The position numbers were made by a program, and so were the translations under genes. A stretch of 64,000 nt of DNA from an uncultured Chloroflexia bacterium (GTDB lineage: Bacteria > Chloroflexota > Chloroflexia > QHBQ01 > JADMIH01), in the NCBI GenBank assembly GCA_963797095.1, contig CAWCNY010000003.1:192001-256000 (forward strand), given 5' to 3'. Positions 40,612 through 49,303 of the stretch are shown here, in pieces. Each line of letters begins with the position of its first letter. The first letter of the stretch is position 1. Under the pieces are notes generated by a model that worked only from the letters and a program-made list of their open reading frames with translations, did not search any database and had not been told where the DNA came from.

Positions 40612-41556
40612 CTACCAACCAAAATAGTCCCCAAGCGAGGCCAGCACTTCGGTAAAATCAAGGAACCTGTAAAACTCATCGTCAACGTTCCCATCGCTAT
40701 CCTCAACCGTCCACCAGGCCGACAGCACAGCCTGCGCCATCGCCCACCCGTAAATGCGCCGGCGATCGAACCCCAGTTCATCCGCCAACTGATCCATGCG
40801 CCGCTTCAGGATACGGCCAGGCTCCGGCTCAAACAATATCTGGGGCACCGGATTGCGAATCAGCGCCCCGATCTCATACTCAGCCTCGCCAACCACACCA
40901 TGCGGGTCAATCGCGAGCCAGGGTTGGCGCTCCGCCGACAGGATATTGTAGTGGTGCAAATCTCCGTGTAACACCACACGCACGCCCTGCGACGGCAAAA
41001 GCTCGGCGTAAAGCCGCTCCGCCTTGTCCACCACATAAGCCGGGAATGGACCCGTGCCGCCGTTGTACCGGGCGCGCAACTCAACCAGACCTTGCGCCCA
41101 CTCCTCCACGCTCGGAAAGCGATGGCCCTCCGGTGCTGGGTGCCGTATCTGGCGCATCACAGATGCCGCGATCGAAGTGGCTTGCGCATCGTCCTCCAGC
41201 GTCGATAGCATCACCCCAGGCTCGATCCTCTCAAGCAGCATCACACCCAACTCAGGATCGTACTCAAGCATAGCCACCGCGCCCACTCCCCCATAAATGC
41301 GGAGCGCATCGGCCTCCGCCGAGAACTCGCGGCTGGGGAAGCACTTGATCACAAGCCGCGTGCCATCCGCGCGCACAGCGGGCGCGACGTAGTTGTACGA
41401 CAACCCGTCGAACGGCGGGCCAATCGCGATAGACCACCGCCTCTCACAATCCTCAAGGATCGCGGGCAGTTCCCGGAGCCACTCGACACCACGAACGCCG
41501 CGTTCGCTGGTGTTCTTATAGATAAATACAGGCGGCAGAAAGAACGGTGCAGGCAT
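40612..41556 (-). CDS. APH(6)/hydroxyurea kinase-family phosphotransferase
   Basis: WLRELP, MLLERIEPG, VLHGDLHHYNIL, WLAIDPHGVVGE. Confidence 0.88.
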   Translation of the reverse strand: MPAPFFLPPVFIYKNTSERGVRGVEWLRELPAILEDCERRWSIAIGPPFDGLSYNYVAPAVRADGTRLVIKCFPSREFSAEADALRIYGGVGAVAMLEYDPELGVMLLERIEPGVMLSTLEDDAQATSIAASVMRQIRHPAPEGHRFPSVEEWAQGLVELRARYNGGTGPFPAYVVDKAERLYAELLPSQGVRVVLHGDLHHYNILSAERQPWLAIDPHGVVGEAEYEIGALIRNPVPQILFEPEPGRILKRRMDQLADELGFDRRRIYGWAMAQAVLSAWWTVEDSDGNVDDEFYRFLDFTEVLASLGDYFGW

Positions 41557-41738
41557 ATTGTCTGAACTTCAGTACGGGCGTAGATCTACGAGAGTATGGA
41601 TCGCTATGCGGAACCTATGAAGGAAATCATCATCCTTCGCTCAGGATGACACATCTCTAGTTGACACTTCAAGCCTGGAATTCCTGCTCCCCGATCTGGT
41701 CTGATACGCACGGACAGACAAGTAAGTTCATCCTCTGA

Positions 41739-42681
41739 CTACACCGATCGCAGACAGCCCTGCGAATCACCCCTCAGCCGCGCAAAATACCCGTTTAGCT
41801 GCTCCCCCGTAATCAAATGCCCCGAATCCGCCATCTGAGTGCAAGTATAACGTGCCGCGATCTGCCCGCGCAATATCGCATCCTCCAACCCATACCCATC
41901 CAGACAATACGACGCCAGAAACCCCACCGCCAGCCCATCCCCTGCCCCGTTCGTATCCACCACAGGCTCCTCCAACACCACCGTCTCAAAATACCGCACC
42001 CCGCCATCCCGCGTCCCCACTGCACACCCTCGACTCCCCATCCCCACAACAATAACCTCAGCCCGACCCACCTCGAAGAACCGCGCAATCAAGCCCGAAG
42101 GATCGGGAAAGTTGGCGCACGAAAAGAATAGAATATCGCTCTGCGCCACGTAATCCGCCCTGTAATCGTCCTTCACAGACACCACGTCCTGCAAATCGCA
42201 CGCCACCATCAGCCCAAGCTCCCGCGCTGGCCCCAGCAGATGCCGCGCCCAATTCTCGATGCTGAAATGCACAAGCCGGGCGCGCCCTAACACCCCCCTG
42301 CAAACCTCCAGGTCAGGCATCAGATTCATCGACCCTCGCCCGTCATAGAAGTTCTTGCGCCCCCCGTCCCCGTACATGATATTCACGCTGCGCCGCGTTC
42401 CCGACGGGTCAACAAACAGCGTAGTCTCGATACGATCCCCGCCCAGTTCGTCGGCGATCATCCGCCCGTTGTGGTCCTCCCCCACATACCCGATGTACGC
42501 AGCACGCTTGCCCAGCCTCGCGTATCCCCGGCTCGAATAGCCGCCCGCGCCACCCACATAATCTATATTGCGCGCAAAGTTGGCCTCCACGCTGAAATCG
42601 ACCGCCCCTCCCGCCGGAAATACGTTCGTATCCACCCCTGCCGCGCCCACCACCACCACATCAAGAGCCGCACCATCGCAT
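41739..42681 (-). CDS. PfkB-family carbohydrate kinase (start probably affected by a +1 base)
   Basis: GGAG, GYVGED..G, VDTNGAGD signature; the ATG after AGGAGG is one base out of frame. Confidence 0.88.
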
Positions 42682-42699
42682 CCAATCCTCCTGAGGCCC

Positions 42700-44571
42700 C
42701 TACACCGGACCCGAAACCGCCGCTTCCTGTGTAGCCAACTCCTCCAGGTCATCCGACGCCGGCGGCTCCTCAAGCGGCAGACCCACCGAATGGCGCGTAT
42801 ACAGGCGGTGATACAGCCCCTCGGCGGCCAGCAATTCGTCGTGCGTGCCCAACTCCGCCACCTCTCCGTTCTCGATCACCGCGATGCGGTCGGCCTTCTC
42901 GACGGTCGATAACCTGTGCGCAATTATCACCACGGTGCGCCCCCTCATCAACCTCTCCAAGGCCTGCTTGACCAGCGCCTCGCTCTCGTTGTCCAACGAC
43001 GAAGTGGCCTCGTCAAGTATCAAAATGCGCGGATCGCGCAGCAATGCGCGCGCGATCGCGATCCGTTGCCGCTGACCCCCCGACAGTTTCACCCCGCGCT
43101 CCCCGATCACGCTGTCGTAACCGTCCTGCAATTCAGTGATAAAAGTATGGGCGTTGGCAGCCCGCGCCGCCGCGCGCACGTCATCTTCCGTGGCGCCAAG
43201 CCTCCCATATACGATATTCTCGTAGATGGTGCCGCCGAACAGTTGTGGGTCCTGCGGCACGATGGCAATCGCCGCCCGCAGGCTAGCCACCTTCAGCTTC
43301 TTCACGTCGTACCCGTCAACCACCACACTCCCGCCCTGCACATCATAAAAGCGAGGGATCAAGCTTGCCAGCGTGGTCTTACCCGCTCCGCTCGGCCCCA
43401 CCAGCGCCAGCACCTCCCCCGATCTCACGTGCAATGTCAGGTCATGCAGCACCTCCGGCCCGCCCGTGTAGTGGAACGTAACCTCGCGCATCTCTATCTC
43501 CCCGCGCACAGGCTGAGGCAGCGACAGGGCGTCGGGTGCATCATAGATCTCCGGCGACGTATCGAGAATGCCAAACAACCGCAATGCGGCCCCGCTCAAC
43601 TCCTGGAAGCTCGCGTACACCCCTGTCAGCGCCCCAATCGGCCCTACAGCGACAATGACATAGATCGGCAGTGTCAGAAGCTGGCCCGGACTGAGGTGGC
43701 CGTTGAGCACCTCCATCCCGCCGAACCACATCACGCCCGCCAGCGCCGAGAAGGTAACAAAACTGATGATAGCGATAAAGATCGAGCGGCTGAGGGTGCG
43801 GCGCATTCCCAGTTGGAACGATGTCTCGACCGCCCCTCCATACCGCCCCACCTCGTACAACTCGCGCCCGAACGCCTTCACGATGCGCGGCGCGGCCAGC
43901 GTCTCTTCAAGCACAGTGGTGGCCTCACCCAGCGCCGACTGCGCTTGCTCCGACACCTTCTGAAGCCTCCCACCGAACACCCGTCCCGCGATTGCTACAG
44001 GCGGCACCACTATCAACACCAGCGCGATCAAATGCCAGTCGATAAGCACGATAATGGTCAGCCCACCGATCAGCGTTAGCACCTGCCCAAGCGGGCCGAT
44101 CAGGTTGTTCGTCAGCCCCGCCTGCACCGCCGTCACATCATTACTGAGTCTCGATGTCAGCTCACCCACCCGCTGGTTGTCGTAGAAGTTCAACGAAAGC
44201 GATTGCAGGTGCGAATAAACCTGCTTGCGCAAATCGGCCACCAATCGCTCGCCCGTAAAAGACAGCAGATAAGATTGCCCGAAGTTGAACACCGATTGCA
44301 CCACAAAGATGCCGACCAGCAGCAGCGCGATACCCGTCATGGCCCCGCCGTCGTGCGTGATCACGGCCCTATCCACGATCTGCTGAATCAGCAGCGGAAA
44401 AGCCAACGTCAGCAGCGATGAAATCACCAGGCACACAGCAGCAAATACCAGTTGTCGCCAGTAAGGCGCGGCCAGCCGCAAAAGGCGGCGCAAAGCCACC
44501 CGGTCGGGCGGCTTCTTGCGATCAGGATTGTCGCCGCGCGCCAACCCGCGAGATCGAGGTCGATTGTACAT
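42700..44571 (-). CDS. ABC exporter, fused permease and ATPase (MsbA-like)
   Basis: Six TM helices; GPSGAGKT; LSGGQRQR; ILILDEATS. Confidence 0.95.
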   Translation of the reverse strand: MYNRPRSRGLARGDNPDRKKPPDRVALRRLLRLAAPYWRQLVFAAVCLVISSLLTLAFPLLIQQIVDRAVITHDGGAMTGIALLLVGIFVVQSVFNFGQSYLLSFTGERLVADLRKQVYSHLQSLSLNFYDNQRVGELTSRLSNDVTAVQAGLTNNLIGPLGQVLTLIGGLTIIVLIDWHLIALVLIVVPPVAIAGRVFGGRLQKVSEQAQSALGEATTVLEETLAAPRIVKAFGRELYEVGRYGGAVETSFQLGMRRTLSRSIFIAIISFVTFSALAGVMWFGGMEVLNGHLSPGQLLTLPIYVIVAVGPIGALTGVYASFQELSGAALRLFGILDTSPEIYDAPDALSLPQPVRGEIEMREVTFHYTGGPEVLHDLTLHVRSGEVLALVGPSGAGKTTLASLIPRFYDVQGGSVVVDGYDVKKLKVASLRAAIAIVPQDPQLFGGTIYENIVYGRLGATEDDVRAAARAANAHTFITELQDGYDSVIGERGVKLSGGQRQRIAIARALLRDPRILILDEATSSLDNESEALVKQALERLMRGRTVVIIAHRLSTVEKADRIAVIENGEVAELGTHDELLAAEGLYHRLYTRHSVGLPLEEPPASDDLEELATQEAAVSGPV

Positions 44572-44748
44572 AGGTCACAACCCGGGAGAAATTTCCAAAT
44601 TACTCGCAACTCGTCACTTGTCACTCGTCACGTTCGGGGAATTACAATCATTATACGGCAGCATCCCGCACCGAGTTTCGCAGACACAATTACGCAAGCA
44701 AACAAAATAACCACCCTAAGCGCCACAACACAACACATCACATCCCCT

Positions 44749-44921
44749 CTAAATATGAAACTCCTCGAATTTCAGATGCAAGTTCGCAGGCGCACAGTCT
44801 GGTTCTAAACATGAAGCATCCTGTATTTTCGATGAGTGCTCGCAAACATTCAATCTGGTTCTAAACATGAGACAGCCCGAATTTCTGATTCACCTTCCCA
44901 GGTGTGCACTCTGCTTCTAAA
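44749..44921. repeat. Non-coding array, exact 56-bp period, three units plus the start of a fourth
   Basis: CTAAA recurs at 44749, 44805, 44861 and 44917; conserved blocks alternate with variable blocks. Confidence 0.85.
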
Positions 44922-44967
44922 AAGAGCTAAATTGGCGGCTTCGCCGCCAATTTAGCTCTTTTTAGAA
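44915..44967. repeat. Perfect 25-bp inverted repeat (hairpin)
   Basis: TTCTAAAAAGAGCTAAATTGGCGGC-TTC-GCCGCCAATTTAGCTCTTTTTAGAA; followed by a CCCCTCCCC..GGGGAGGGG REP-like palindrome. Confidence 0.92.
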
Positions 44968-45106
44968 AGCCCCTCCCCAAAATTTCGGGGAGGGGTTGGG
45001 GTGGGGTCTCGGAGCACCCACATGCCCCCTTACGCACAACTTCAAGATTTGGGATGCCCCATGTGCTGCCCCCAGGCAAACTCAACTTCTCCAAAGGGAG
45101 TGCGCT

Positions 45107-45496
45107 CTATGGTGAATGGGGCCGACCAGTCAAAGGAAGCACCGCATCTACAGGCGTAGGTGAAGGCAGCGGTGTCGAGGTGGGCAGCAAAGGCGTGTCG
45201 GTAGGTACAGCCGTGGGCGGCTCCGGCATATTCGTAATAATCGCCGGCACAGGCGTGCTTGTACTTACCGCAATCGCCGTGTTGGTCGCCGTAGGAACAG
45301 GCGAAGATATCGCCGTAACGGTAGCCGTGGCCTCCGTCTCAGGTATCACAGCAGGCGGCGATGGCGCAAGCGGCCACTTAGTAATAACCGCCGCCAATGC
45401 CGCGATCAACCCACCCGCCAGAAAGATCGCAGCCAGCAACATAGGCAGCCTGCTTTCGCGCTGTCTGGTCTGGCCCATTGCCTGGCGGTTCGTCAT
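45107..45496 (-). CDS. Membrane-anchored Pro/Thr-rich protein, possibly truncated
   Basis: One TM helix followed by a PT-rich linker with no downstream domain; GGAGG upstream. Confidence 0.55.
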   Translation of the reverse strand: MTNRQAMGQTRQRESRLPMLLAAIFLAGGLIAALAAVITKWPLAPSPPAVIPETEATATVTAISSPVPTATNTAIAVSTSTPVPAIITNMPEPPTAVPTDTPLLPTSTPLPSPTPVDAVLPLTGRPHSP

Positions 45497-45695
45497 CGCA
45501 CCCTCACATTTCGGTTACCTCCATTGTACGTCCGAATACGCAACTTCGAAAAACCCATTATGAGTATTTTCGTGTTAGGCGAGGAGTAGCAAGTAGCAAA
45601 CCGACGCAAGTGTGCTATTATTAAGCCTAAAGCAACAAACACCACCATAAGAAAAGACACCAACACCACAATGACGTTGTCAGGGGGGTAGAGAG

Positions 45696-46781
45696 ATGGC
45701 GAAAACATCAAGCAAAGCAAGGCGTGTAGAAGCAAACGGCAAGCACAACGGGGCAGCCGCCCTCGCCGAACATGATATCTCCGTTTCCACAAACGGCAAG
45801 TCCCGCACCACCGAACGCACCTCCCACACGACCTGGGAGCGCAACCCCGGCACCCCCCTCGACCTCGACTGGATCTACTCCACGCGCATCAACCGCAGCG
45901 CCGTCGAGCGCCGCGCCTCCACCCTTACCACCCGCCGCACCGTCAAGAAAGAGTGGCAGGCCGCCTGGCTCCTGCGCGCCATCACCTGCCTCGATCTCAC
46001 CACCCTCTCCGGCGACGACACCCCCGGCAACGTGGTTCGCCTCTGCGCCAAGGCCCGCCGCCCCGTCCGCCAGGACCTCGTCGAAGCCCTCGGCGTGGCC
46101 GACCTGGGTATCACAGTTGGCGCGGTCTGCGTCTACCACAACCTCGTGCCCATAGCCGTCGAATCCCTCCAGGGCACAAAGATCCCGGTCGCCGCCGTCT
46201 CCACAGGCTTCCCCGCCGCCCAGATCAGCTTCGAAGACAAGCTCTCCGAGATAGAGAAGTCGGTGGCGGCAGGCGCTCGCGAGATCGACATCGTGATCTC
46301 GCGAGCCCACGTCCTCACGGGCAACTGGCAAGCCCTCTACGATGAAGTCAAAGCCTTCCGCGCAGCCTGCGGTCCCGCCCACATGAAGTCGATCCTGGCC
46401 ACCGGCGAGCTAGCCACCCTCCGCAACGTCTACCAGGCCAGCATCGTCTGCATGATGGCAGGCTCCCACTTCATCAAGACCAGCACCGGCAAAGAAACCG
46501 TCAACGCCACACTCCCCGTCAGCCTCGTCATGGTGCGCGCCATCCGCGAATACTTCGAGCGCACAGGCCACCGCGTAGGCTTCAAGCCTGCGGGCGGCAT
46601 CCGCACCGCCAAACAATCCCTCGACTGGCTTATTCTCATGAAAGAAGAGCTAGGCACCGACTGGACCATGCCCGACCTCTTCCGCATAGGCGCAAGCTCC
46701 CTCCTCACCGACATAGAGCGCCAATTGGAATACTTCGTCACCGGACGCTACTCAGCCGCCCATCGCCACCCCATGCCCTAA
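45696..46781 (+). CDS. deoC: Deoxyribose-phosphate aldolase (long type)
   Basis: LDLTTLSGDDT, STGFP, EIDIVI, FIKTSTGK, GFKPAGGIR, FRIGASSLL. Confidence 0.95.
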   Translation: MAKTSSKARRVEANGKHNGAAALAEHDISVSTNGKSRTTERTSHTTWERNPGTPLDLDWIYSTRINRSAVERRASTLTTRRTVKKEWQAAWLLRAITCLDLTTLSGDDTPGNVVRLCAKARRPVRQDLVEALGVADLGITVGAVCVYHNLVPIAVESLQGTKIPVAAVSTGFPAAQISFEDKLSEIEKSVAAGAREIDIVISRAHVLTGNWQALYDEVKAFRAACGPAHMKSILATGELATLRNVYQASIVCMMAGSHFIKTSTGKETVNATLPVSLVMVRAIREYFERTGHRVGFKPAGGIRTAKQSLDWLILMKEELGTDWTMPDLFRIGASSLLTDIERQLEYFVTGRYSAAHRHPMP

Positions 46782-46799
46782 GTGCAGTGTGGAGCAAGA

Positions 46800-47243
46800 A
46801 TGAATCGTGCCGATTTCAAGAAACGGGCCCAAATAAGGGTTAGAGATGCCGGGGTTTTACTGAGAGCCGGAAACTATGCAGGAGCATATTATCTGGCAGG
46901 CTACGCGATTGAGTGCGCACTATAAGCGTGTATAGCCCGCCAGACAAAGCAATTTGATTTTCCTCCCGACCGGTCGGAGATCAAGAACATTTACATTCAT
47001 GACCTTCCAAAACTGCTTAAGCCAGCTAACCTCATTACTGAGCATGATAATGAACGAAGACAAAATCCGCAATTTGACAAGTATTGGTCAATAGTTAGAG
47101 ACTGGTTTGAGCAGAGTCGCTACTCCCACGTACGGACAAAATCTGAGGCTCAAGACTTATTCTCTGCTGTGACTGATCCCACGAATGGAGTATTACAATG
47201 GCTAAAGAGATACTGGTGGGCCAATACCTTACCGACAGCATGA
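46800..47243 (+). pseudogene. HEPN-domain protein with internal TAA at 46923-46925
   Basis: Manual translation: MNRADFKK...AYYLAGYAIECAL*ACIA...IYIHDL..L...W.EQSRY...GVLQWLKRYW; absent from the ORF track. Confidence 0.8.
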
Positions 47244-47593
47244 TTGATGCAGGTGCCAATCTAGTTGAACAGGTCAGGAAGAGCGACCTGCGGGTTGTTG
47301 CTGCCTTCTGGCTTTACTTTGAAGAAGCAGAAGAATGGCGTTTGGTCCTGGTTTCCAAGAGATTGCATAAAGATGGCCCTCTGGCGCTCTATGAAGAACT
47401 TAGCAACCTTCTTTATGATGAGGCAAGACGAGAGAGATATGGAATCAGCCTGATTAATACAACCTTCATGGATGCTGGTGACAATCTAGTCCGCTCACTA
47501 GCAAGCGTGCCACATGGTGGGCAGTTACTCGAAAATAGGAGGCTCACGGGCTTCGCTTTCAAAGGCACCTATGTACCCGATATTTACGTATAA
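47198..47593 (+). CDS. Hypothetical protein coupled to the HEPN gene (putative antitoxin partner)
   Basis: Overlaps the HEPN 3' end; AAFWLYFEEAEEWRLVLVS; same low GC. Confidence 0.65.
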   Translation: MAKEILVGQYLTDSMIDAGANLVEQVRKSDLRVVAAFWLYFEEAEEWRLVLVSKRLHKDGPLALYEELSNLLYDEARRERYGISLINTTFMDAGDNLVRSLASVPHGGQLLENRRLTGFAFKGTYVPDIYV

Positions 47594-47643
47594 TTCATTG
47601 GAGATGACATTCAACCATTACCAGGCGCACGAGTAATGAGCAA

Positions 47644-48138
47644 ATGACCCTACCCGAAGGCCACATGAACGAAGCCGCCCTGAAAGGTAAAATCCTGGCG
47701 GAAAAACGTATCCGCGTCATAGTCCTGGGTGTCTTCCGTCGCGGCCACGAGATCTTCGTTGTGGAAGGCTACGATCCCAACAAAAACGAAACCTTCTACC
47801 GCCCCCTCGGCGGCGGTATCGAGTTCGGCGAGCGTGCTGTCGATGCCCTTGCCAGGGAGATGCTCGAAGAAACAGGCTTGCTGATAACGAACACTCGCTA
47901 TCTCGGCACCTGTGAAAACATCTTCACCTACCTCGGAGAAATGGGCCACGAAATCGTGCAGATCTACACAGCAGACTTCGTGGACCCCACCGTCTACGAC
48001 ACCGACTCCATCGAATGCCAGGAAGATGACGAAACACCTTTCATCGCCGTCTGGAAGCACCTCGACACCTTCGGCAAAGACAAAGACGGCCCTTTATATC
48101 CTGACGAGCTAAAAAGGTTGTTAGAAGCAAATGAATAG
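47644..48138 (+). CDS. NUDIX hydrolase
   Basis: Nudix box GGGIEFGERAVDALAREMLEETG. Confidence 0.92.
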   Translation: MTLPEGHMNEAALKGKILAEKRIRVIVLGVFRRGHEIFVVEGYDPNKNETFYRPLGGGIEFGERAVDALAREMLEETGLLITNTRYLGTCENIFTYLGEMGHEIVQIYTADFVDPTVYDTDSIECQEDDETPFIAVWKHLDTFGKDKDGPLYPDELKRLLEANE

Positions 48139-49303
48139 CGGCATCTATCTAATAAAAGATGGTGGCTCACTGGTCGAAATGACCGAGCAGCCATATGCTT
48201 CTGAGGACTTATTGCAGAAGCTTCTGGCGGATCATCCAAGCTTACTTGCTGGAAATCAGATGAATCCTAGAGCCCCAAGAAAATGGTTACTTGTTTCGCG
48301 AGAGACACCCTTGTCCTCAACACAGGGCGGAGCCGGTAGATGGTCCGTGGACCACCTCTTCCTGGATCAGGATGCAGTACCAACAATCGTTGAAGTCAAG
48401 AGAAGCAGTGACACACGTATCAGGCGAGAAGTCGTGGGCCAACTTCTCGAGTATGCCGCCAATGCAGTCGTCTACTGGCCAGTAGAAAGCTTAATCAGCC
48501 AATTCGAGTCAACTCAAACGGCCCAAGGGCAGGATCCATCGGAAATCCTTGCTGAGTTCCTAGGTGAGAACGAAGATGCCAACACATTTTGGGGAAGGGT
48601 CAAGACAAACCTGCAAGCAGGTAAAATCAGGTTGGTGTTTGTTGCGGATTACATACCACCAGAGCTACAGCGAATAGTCGAGTTCTTGAACGGTCAAATG
48701 AGTTCTGCTGAGGTGCTGGCTGTGCAAATCAAGCAGTATGTAGGTGAGGGTTTCAAGACCTTGATTCCGAGGGTCATAGGCCAAACTGCACAAGCACAAC
48801 AAGCTAAAACCGTCGGTCCAAAATCGACTATAGAGTGGGACGAGGACTCTTTCTTCCAGCTAGTAGAAAAGAGAGTTGGTGCCCAGGATGTCGTTACTGC
48901 TAAACAAATATTAGAATGGGCAAAAGCAGCCAATCTCATTATAACTTGGGGTAAGGGTGCAACGGATCCGGGCTTCAGGATAAAAGTGGATCATGATGAT
49001 CTAGAACATGCAATTGCGGGCATATGGTCTTATGGAGCAGGTCAAGTTACGAACCTGGAAATACTCTACGATCAGCTTAATGCCAATCAACACGACACAA
49101 ATACAAAACGCCTGGAGTTCTTAAGACAGTTAGGTGCGATCCCGGGGGTTGGCAGTTATCTTGGCGGGACGAAAATTCGTCCAAATATCCCTTTATCCCT
49201 TTTCCACAGACAGGGATCCCTTGACCAACTGCTCAAAGCACTGAATTGGGCCGTTCAAACAATGAAATCCGCAGTAGATCAACCCACATCTACAGAGAAT
49301 TGA
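48131..49303 (+). CDS. PD-(D/E)xK nuclease-like (NucS/DUF91-like) protein
   Basis: E..LQ.LL...P, VDHLFLD...IVEVK, VVGQLLEYAA; lower GC than neighbours. Confidence 0.72.
   Translation: MNSGIYLIKDGGSLVEMTEQPYASEDLLQKLLADHPSLLAGNQMNPRAPRKWLLVSRETPLSSTQGGAGRWSVDHLFLDQDAVPTIVEVKRSSDTRIRREVVGQLLEYAANAVVYWPVESLISQFESTQTAQGQDPSEILAEFLGENEDANTFWGRVKTNLQAGKIRLVFVADYIPPELQRIVEFLNGQMSSAEVLAVQIKQYVGEGFKTLIPRVIGQTAQAQQAKTVGPKSTIEWDEDSFFQLVEKRVGAQDVVTAKQILEWAKAANLIITWGKGATDPGFRIKVDHDDLEHAIAGIWSYGAGQVTNLEILYDQLNANQHDTNTKRLEFLRQLGAIPGVGSYLGGTKIRPNIPLSLFHRQGSLDQLLKALNWAVQTMKSAVDQPTSTEN

Follow-up and report, generated by a model that had tools for sequence, protein, structure and literature searches.

A probable MITE copy with a tripled left-end module in a Chloroflexia genome, and insertion sequences that share its ends

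Positions 44749-45066 of the window (the whole 64,000-nucleotide stretch of Chloroflexia DNA analysed here) are very probably a single MITE copy whose left-end module, A, has been tripled; its family would have been spread by a DDE transposase and then orphaned, and the tripling would be a by-product. In this reading the element begins with A, the left end, whose first ~29 nt would serve as terminal inverted repeat. H, the next module, is a long perfect palindrome that has the build of a Rho-independent terminator for both directions; G combines a C/G hairpin with a G-run, and R would close the element with the terminal repeat in inverted form. An IS4-superfamily DDE transposase (PF01609) recognising the ~21-23-nt terminal repeat would have spread the family, whose copies would now be orphaned and mostly decaying. 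They sit just 3' of genes, often between convergent ones, where H would most likely end transcription both ways. An earlier note on this DNA had proposed, among three readings, the body of a novel miniature element, and this is the one that the analysis upholds: we found a dispersed ~200-bp family bounded by terminal inverted repeats, and relatives have a matching IS that encodes a transposase. The family is ordinary selfish DNA, new as a family and of a kind of element already known; no description of it was found in the literature on Ktedonobacter/Chloroflexi MITEs and on repetitive extragenic palindromic sequences, ISfinder lying outside that search.

Modules and tandem units at the window locus

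Three gap-free units of 56 bp are arranged head-to-tail (44749-44804, 44805-44860 and 44861-44916), and all of them fit the pattern drawn up in the earlier note. A repeat search gave their spacing as 56 + 56, with 69% and 76% identity to the first copy; the 56-bp period was absent from the output of Tandem Repeats Finder. We also recovered the 25-nt inverted repeat (44915-44939 / 44943-44967; 100%, 3-nt loop) and the G/C palindrome (44970-44982 / 44983-44995; 13 nt, 92%) that had been described, and the array is indeed AT-richer than its surroundings, with a GC content of 0.435-0.475 over 44600-44999 versus ~0.58-0.63 in the flanks. The extent given earlier, 44749..45010, needed correction at one end: the feature stands, but it runs on to ~45066, where the first ~29 nt of the unit return in inverted form.

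The complete element occupies 44863-45066, with two further A units before it (Table 1). It scores 158 bits with R1, a sequence-only model of the full element, and a whole-element profile matches contig C3 at 236863-237064 (from the inner A onward) with E=9.7e-53. The 56-bp period corresponds to the A module plus a 2-nt CT linker (44749-44750); TTCTAAA stands at each unit boundary, and the same TTCTAAA joins A to H. The four G4 runs at 44987-45006 overlap the G hairpin and form a potential G-quadruplex motif on the + strand.

Table 1. Coordinates of the modules of the window copy and of related features elsewhere
Feature	Position	Strand	Basis or remark
A module, copy 1 (outermost left-end unit)	44751..44804	+	nhmmer 36.7 bits, E=5.7e-9; 80% to consensus
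A module, copy 2 (middle, most decayed)	44807..44860	+	56-bp register; 12.9 bits; 78% to consensus
A module, copy 3 (inner)	44863..44916	+	83% to consensus; first ~29 nt = left terminal inverted repeat
H module, perfect 25-bp palindrome, 3-nt loop, A-tract/G+C core/T-tract	44915..44967	.	inverted-repeat search
G module, hairpin CCCCTCCCC / GGGGAGGGG (44970-44995) + four G4 runs (44987-45006)	44970..45006	+	sequence reading
R module; last ~29 nt (45038-45066) = right terminal inverted repeat	45011..45066	+	alignment of copies
IS-bearing metagenome contigs	L266, L252, L249, L270		
IS right-end hairpin	L352 3039-3076 (G003); L353 about 2925-2964 (G019)		
Secreted-looking proteins	L007 2-1099 = G000 C2:705136-706233; L009 3-1481 = G000 C6:942092-943570		
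Second G-run-rich repeat, G000	C2:339643-340103, C2:957671-958082, C3:759938-760351		

The resemblance of the 56-bp units is more than chance: units 1 and 3 match a profile of the genome's other copies at E=5.7e-9 and better, and the score of copy 2 comes from a small-database search of flanks, in which controls matched at 0 of 600 intergenic stretches. Compared with a consensus of 54 other A copies, the window units are 78-83% identical, versus 64-72% among themselves, and the sequences most similar to them lie at other loci of the genome. Units that are nearer to the consensus than to each other are what independent decay of three consensus-like units predicts; these identities fit an old local triplication and successive insertions alike. 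The tripling would most likely be a by-product of repeat turnover and not a function. It could have arisen by unequal recombination or slippage at the shared TTCTAAA junction, for which the recurrence of this motif at each unit boundary would offer a simple route, or by neighbouring insertions followed by a deletion.

Arrays of guide RNAs of the CRISPR or TIGR kind have many units, each with conserved repeat parts and unique spacer parts. The earlier note had considered such a multi-spacer array here, the variable blocks being its spacers, and the regular 56-bp period, some variable stretches and the existence of dispersed copies agree with it; the remaining evidence makes it almost certainly wrong. 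A search for longer arrays with a profile of the unit returned at most three units, at the window locus itself, and most loci have a single one. The alternation of conserved and variable blocks did not hold up: 25 of the 56 columns vary among the window units, in 23 runs versus 28.7 expected, so that the clustering of differences is not significant (runs test, p=0.077), and the varying columns show no enrichment at family-variable columns (p=0.16). The unit identities, higher to the consensus than to the neighbouring units, are those predicted by decay. The three A units alone fold no better than shuffled sequences (z=+0.18), and Rfam (E-value mode, 43500-46500) returned no family, its best result being a sub-threshold miRNA-like match to the hairpin (25.9 bits, cut-off 90). 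The proposed check of the variable blocks against phages and plasmids was made by blastn with the whole element, which gave no phage match and plasmid matches only in the G/C module, none of them in the units. Among the nine neighbouring ORFs (40612-49303), Pfam identified an ABC exporter, PfkB, an APH kinase, DeoC and NUDIX, and no nuclease or Nop-type domain. The case is a warning that short regular repeats are easily misread as guide arrays.

Each window unit can be read as an 18-codon ATG...TAA frame (44754-44916), open because the in-frame TAG that follows six codons in the consensus is altered in all three units (CAG, TCG and CTG). Given this consensus TAG and no Shine-Dalgarno sequence before the ATGs, we rejected the idea of mini-ORFs: the frames are probably a coincidence. 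Just upstream of the array the heptanucleotide ACTCGTC is repeated 3.3 times, with heptamers and CACAA at 44609-44631 and 44724-44742. Heptamer repeats stand at many other places in the window, among them 2771, 9084 and 19935 (perfect, 4-6 units each) and 50877 (92%); the window also contains a CACAA x3.8 run. Contigs from three soil DNA runs cover 44468-44650 and a few short pieces, none of which spans the array.

The G module (a C4TC4 / G4AG4 hairpin, then TTGGGGTGGGG; window 44966-45008) recurs at 83-87% identity in 33 plasmid or chromid records, at 85 places that are unannotated intergenic sites (loci L143 401-443 and L144 401-444). The hosts are Rhizobium, Sinorhizobium, Sphingomonas (at most ten places per replicon), Shinella and the cyanobacterium Allocoleopsis. 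This recurrence could be low-complexity convergence or a widely shared module; a literature search found no mention of the 20-nt G-run.

A dispersed family at gene 3' ends

Occurrence at a single locus had been named as part of the refuting outcome. We found instead 103 loci in the genome that contains the window (G000; 6.02 Mb in 8 contigs, 58% GC, 93% complete), using separate profiles for the four modules, whose order is always A-H-G-R. A blastn search with 44740-45010 alone gave ~77 places in the same genome, most of them consisting of one unit, the hairpin and the G/C palindrome. Fourteen loci are AHGR, 10 AHG, 10 AH, 25 H alone and 9 A alone, the remainder being forms without H and a few composites; the G module occurs at 50 non-overlapping places. 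Full copies measure 188-208 bp and contain no gene. Their boundaries are sharp: over 54 left and 26 right flanks, the information content drops from 1-1.8 bits to ~0 precisely where the element stops. The first ~29 nt of A return inverted at the R end, so that the copies are bounded by terminal inverted repeats. The whole element folds tightly (z=-8.3).

The copies differ in age. Two of them, C2:536029 and C6:496164, have ends that match at 100% and 97% within unrelated flanks and look like the youngest insertions. Across 16 elements, the left and right ends of one element are 72% identical, and so are ends taken from different elements; since an element's own ends match no better than foreign ones, most copies are old and there is no upkeep of the A-R stem.

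At 9 of the 62 A-bearing loci, versus 0 of 600 control intergenic stretches, the inner A is immediately preceded by an extra A-like unit that points the same way; two extra units occur only at the window locus. Across the genus, the exact pattern of tandem units, which was too strict, gave about as many matches as its control, and three matches read as real tandem units (in G000, G003 and G001). A second repeat of ~185-210 bp, rich in G-runs, lies within or replaces the H palindrome of three elements (Table 1), and it is found twice more in G041, in the spacer that corresponds by synteny to the window locus (L053 150-330).

The H module opens with an A-tract, contains a variable stretch and a near-invariant core (GGCGGC / 2-5-nt loop / GCCGCC), and closes with a T-tract. 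By this symmetry, it reads on either strand as a strong stem followed by a T-run. Among 42 element-borne H modules there are 33 distinct arm sequences, yet 35 of the 42 are perfect over 22 bp, and the arm differences from the consensus are compensated in 200 cases versus 11 uncompensated. As RNA, H and G together fold at -64.6 kcal/mol (z=-11.8), with a stem much longer than that of a usual terminator. With its G+C-rich stem, the T-run behind it and its position at gene 3' ends, H looks like a candidate bidirectional intrinsic (Rho-independent) terminator, judged by its sequence, and the hairpin would most likely end transcription from both sides between convergent genes. At the site orthologous to C2:900594, G041, G003 and G005 have nothing but a plain palindromic terminator with A-tract and T-tract, its stem sequences being different. 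These plain terminators indicate that long symmetric terminators are native to the genus and that H is the element's own version of them. This makes a tidy case in which native bidirectional terminators seem to have given way to a mobile element. That a palindrome of varying sequence is kept nearly perfect is an unexplained feature of interest to students of transposition targets.

We assessed the position of the 103 loci relative to genes with a crude codon-usage caller (4622 genes, 85% coding). Only two loci overlap called genes by more than half. Convergent genes surround 46 of the loci, tandem genes 51 and divergent genes 6, compared with 681 convergent (15%) and 677 divergent spacers among the 4614 of the background, and at least one gene 3' end faces the repeat at 97 of the 103. 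The window copy was scored as divergent: the caller had picked the plus-strand ORF 45054-45563, whose frame reads unlike protein. On the minus strand, the ORF 45107-45496 (129 aa) has an N-terminal hydrophobic helix and a Pro/Thr-rich tail and reads as a real small protein; neither ORF has a Pfam match. Judging from the two translations, the minus-strand ORF is probably the real neighbour, and the element would then lie 40 nt downstream of it. Only if this ORF is real does the window copy fit the 3'-end rule.

The ABC exporter gene lies on the other side of the element (42700-44571, minus strand), and its start is 179 nt from the A units, which lie upstream of it. By co-option, the three units might now regulate this divergent or tandem exporter as a phased array of binding sites or promoters, close to the phased protein-binding array envisaged in the earlier note. 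The distance would suit such a role, the reverse complement of the consensus A contains, by eye, a weak -35/-10-like pair with 17-nt spacing, and Correia elements are described as promoter carriers (Delihas, PMC3184786). We consider this co-option improbable, however: a simple promoter/terminator scan predicted 0 promoter sites in 44300-45300 and flagged nothing within the element, the window units are more decayed versions of the module (78-83% to consensus), family copies lie mainly at gene 3' ends with only 6 of 103 in divergent spacers, and the orthologous spacer of G041 is without the element. The closest named relatives of the neighbouring aldolase come from MAGs of Chloroflexia and Ktedonobacteraceae; its amino-acid identity to the protein of Ktedonobacter racemifer is 75%.

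Of the three elements chosen for orthology, two closely follow genes whose products look secreted (Table 1). These proteins have linkers rich in Pro/Thr and, at the C terminus, three repeats that by eye may be SLH-like. Genomes of the genus each contain over 40 paralogues of the repeat region at the DNA level, and these swamped the orthology checks of L009 and L007.

The loci also show a strand polarity. The top strand of the element is on the negative-GC-skew strand at 61 of 78 oriented loci (skew over ±10 kb; Fisher p=1e-5) and at 63 of 78 when third-codon-position skew is used (p=1.3e-6). Element orientation changes along the contigs in 27 runs versus 39.5 expected (p=0.0009). There is no clear link with the local majority gene strand (raw counts 34:18 and 16:10). 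In G003 and G012 together, polarity was not significant (24 of 41, p=0.36); we therefore regard it as an unexplained feature of this genome and not as an established property of the family.

Relatives, partner insertion sequences and insertion sites

With R1 we detected the family in 8 of 26 genus genomes, the present one included, with 40 matches in G003, 36 in G012, 24 in G005, 11 in G017, 9 in G041, 4 in G011 and 1 in G004. The 14 genomes from the order's two other families gave no match with this model. Many of the genomes searched are fragmented MAGs, and a miss is therefore weak evidence. In relatives the architecture is the same (terminal repeat, perfect palindrome that is longer still, with arms of 32-35 bp, G module, R end) and the sequences have diverged. 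The spacer between the ABC exporter and aldolase genes is syntenic in G041, where it contains no family module and holds heptamer repeats and a different G+C-rich repeat. Presence and absence thus differ at both informative orthologous sites, this spacer and C2:900594. For annotation, one MITE family can now be given as the identity of about 100 intergenic stretches here and of dozens more across at least seven sister genomes.

The conserved terminal repeat was found in at least 126 stretches of metagenome contigs. In four metagenome records (Table 1), this repeat (21 nt) flanks elements 1442, 1443, 1810 and 1814 bp long, one end being the inverse of the other. A single ORF of 445 aa in the 1442-bp IS matches PF01609 (DDE transposase) at 1.3e-8; NCBIfam gave only below-cut-off matches to IS4, IS1634, IS701 and IS1380, and the placement therefore stops at the IS4 superfamily. 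The same repeat bounds an IS of 1646 bp with a 469-aa ORF in G003 and one of 1524 bp in G019, two published genomes. Two further repeat-bounded cases come from the unpublished genomes G021 and G016, and the claim of a partner is independent of both. IS and MITE share only ~23 nt of the terminal repeat, and their interiors are unrelated. The shared terminal repeat with a DDE IS identifies the family as a MITE of an IS4-superfamily element.

Relatives of the partner transposase within the genus are 41-43% identical to it, and its family comprises at least 4005 proteins at E<=1e-20, generically annotated or unnamed, to which the MITE family is now linked. Searched by tblastn against plasmids, it gave one weak match. 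In the window's own genome (assembly 93% complete), identity to the transposase is 23-27% at best, and the only inverted pairs of ends with a spacing of 330-6000 bp are two 412-bp composites. As ISs with the same repeat and a transposase exist in relatives and metagenomes and none was found here, the copies are orphaned in this genome.

The autonomous IS has a hairpin at its right-hand tip, with a ~16-bp stem formed by the terminal repeat and an internal, inverted partial copy of it (Table 1). The IS of G003 abuts a remnant of the MITE made of half of H, G and R, and its inner right end is filled with heptamer arrays.

Target-site duplication was sought at 54 full-length copies from G000, G003 and G012: the best direct repeat averages 2.0 nt, versus 1.83 in shuffled flank pairs. 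The lack of duplication would suit an alternative to a DDE-type MITE, namely a REP/REPIN-like element that a Y1 (HUH) transposase transfers in single-stranded form, and so would the richness in hairpins, the massive compensatory change in H, the top strand falling on the negative-GC-skew strand at 61 of 78 loci and the four Y1_Tnp genes of the genome. Such a mode of transfer is nonetheless highly improbable. The same terminal repeat bounds an IS with a DDE transposase, and the strand polarity was not reproduced in G003 and G012. None of the four Y1_Tnp genes is flanked by family modules, the only one in the vicinity being a lone R 2.4 kb away. REPs, in the description of Di Nocera 2013 (PMC3733652), are short hairpins with a GTAG or CGTC tag, and the family consensus has neither. 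Two of the Y1_Tnp genes belong to IS605-type pairs, with a 130-aa Y1 transposase followed by a 358-aa ORF (C1:424161-425624 and C3:1052855-1054318); the other two are solo genes (C3:965884 and C4:495048).

The flanks are mutually inverted over 4-15 nt in 8 of 54 full copies, a count reached in 2 of 500 shuffles, and the metagenomic IS copy L270 has flanks mutually inverted over 18 nt; several of these are A-run/T-run pairs. Such flanks look like insertion at the centre of a palindrome, a targeting suggested by a minority of the copies. One could go further and see the family as a mobile 'terminator cassette', in which the DDE transposase inserts at the apex of palindromic terminators that are extruded, in hairpin form, on one template strand of the replication fork. 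This would explain together the insertions without duplications, the inverted flanks, the 3'-end preference and the strand polarity; the 22-33-bp palindromes would be kept perfect by a process at the DNA level (arm-to-arm templating) and not by base-by-base selection, and repeated insertions directed at the ends would have left the tandem A units as scars. We hold the cassette idea to be rather unlikely as it stands. Polarity and palindromic flanks are unexplained but testable, and of interest for the study of transposition targets.

Comparison with known systems

The family has terminal inverted repeats, small dispersed copies with sharp ends, an autonomous IS (outside its own genome) and sites that differ in presence or absence. 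Target-site duplication, which the account of Delihas 2011 (PMC3184786) places among MITE signatures, was not detected at the copies examined. Nezha, with ISNpu3-like elements, is an example of an IS-paired MITE (PMC3184786, Table 1; PMC3049150, background). Like such elements, our family is ~200 bp long, gene-less, intergenic, multicopy and tightly folding (z=-8.3), and its terminal inverted repeats are identical to those of a transposase-bearing IS. It departs from them in the undetected duplication, in a partner IS that is absent from its own genome, and in carrying a terminator-like perfect palindrome, a G-run module and, at 9 of 62 loci, a tandem left end.

Pneumococcal BOX elements have the structure boxA-(boxB)n-boxC (Croucher et al. 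2011, PMC3049150). As described there, they share with our family a fixed module order with one module in variable tandem number, an enrichment downstream of genes and, as a proposal, ends that match an IS. They differ in that their variable module is the internal boxB, whereas here it is the terminal A with its inverted repeat, and there is no sequence relation to these elements of another phylum. SPRITEs, to the extent that they are treated in PMC3049150 and PMC3184786, are likewise dispersed near the 3' ends of coding sequences, with an unusually long stem followed by a T-rich tract, and their co-option as terminators has been suggested. A SPRITE, however, is a single ~105-nt hairpin unit; here the palindrome is one module within an element bounded by inverted repeats, and H, with an A-tract as well as a T-tract, is symmetric and could act in both directions.

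REPINs, as presented by Bertels and Rainey 2011 (PMC3116915), have inverted conserved ends that form a long hairpin, undergo compensatory changes and gather in tandem higher-order clusters, all of which recall our family and provide a precedent for the compensatory upkeep of a long hairpin. Unlike REPINs, the family element is larger and has distinct internal modules, its terminal repeat is common to a DDE IS, and we found no association with a RAYT. Palindromic REP units are the insertion targets of IS1397 and ISKpn1 (Tobes and Pareja 2006, PMC1525189); the mutually inverted flanks of 8 of 54 full copies and of L270 (4-18 nt) are similar to this, although the transposase is of another family and the targets look like A-tract/T-tract terminator palindromes and not like REPs. 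By function and anatomy, the family is closest, among the systems covered in PMC3049150 and PMC3184786, to IS-paired MITEs, with a BOX-like modularity and a SPRITE-like terminator core.
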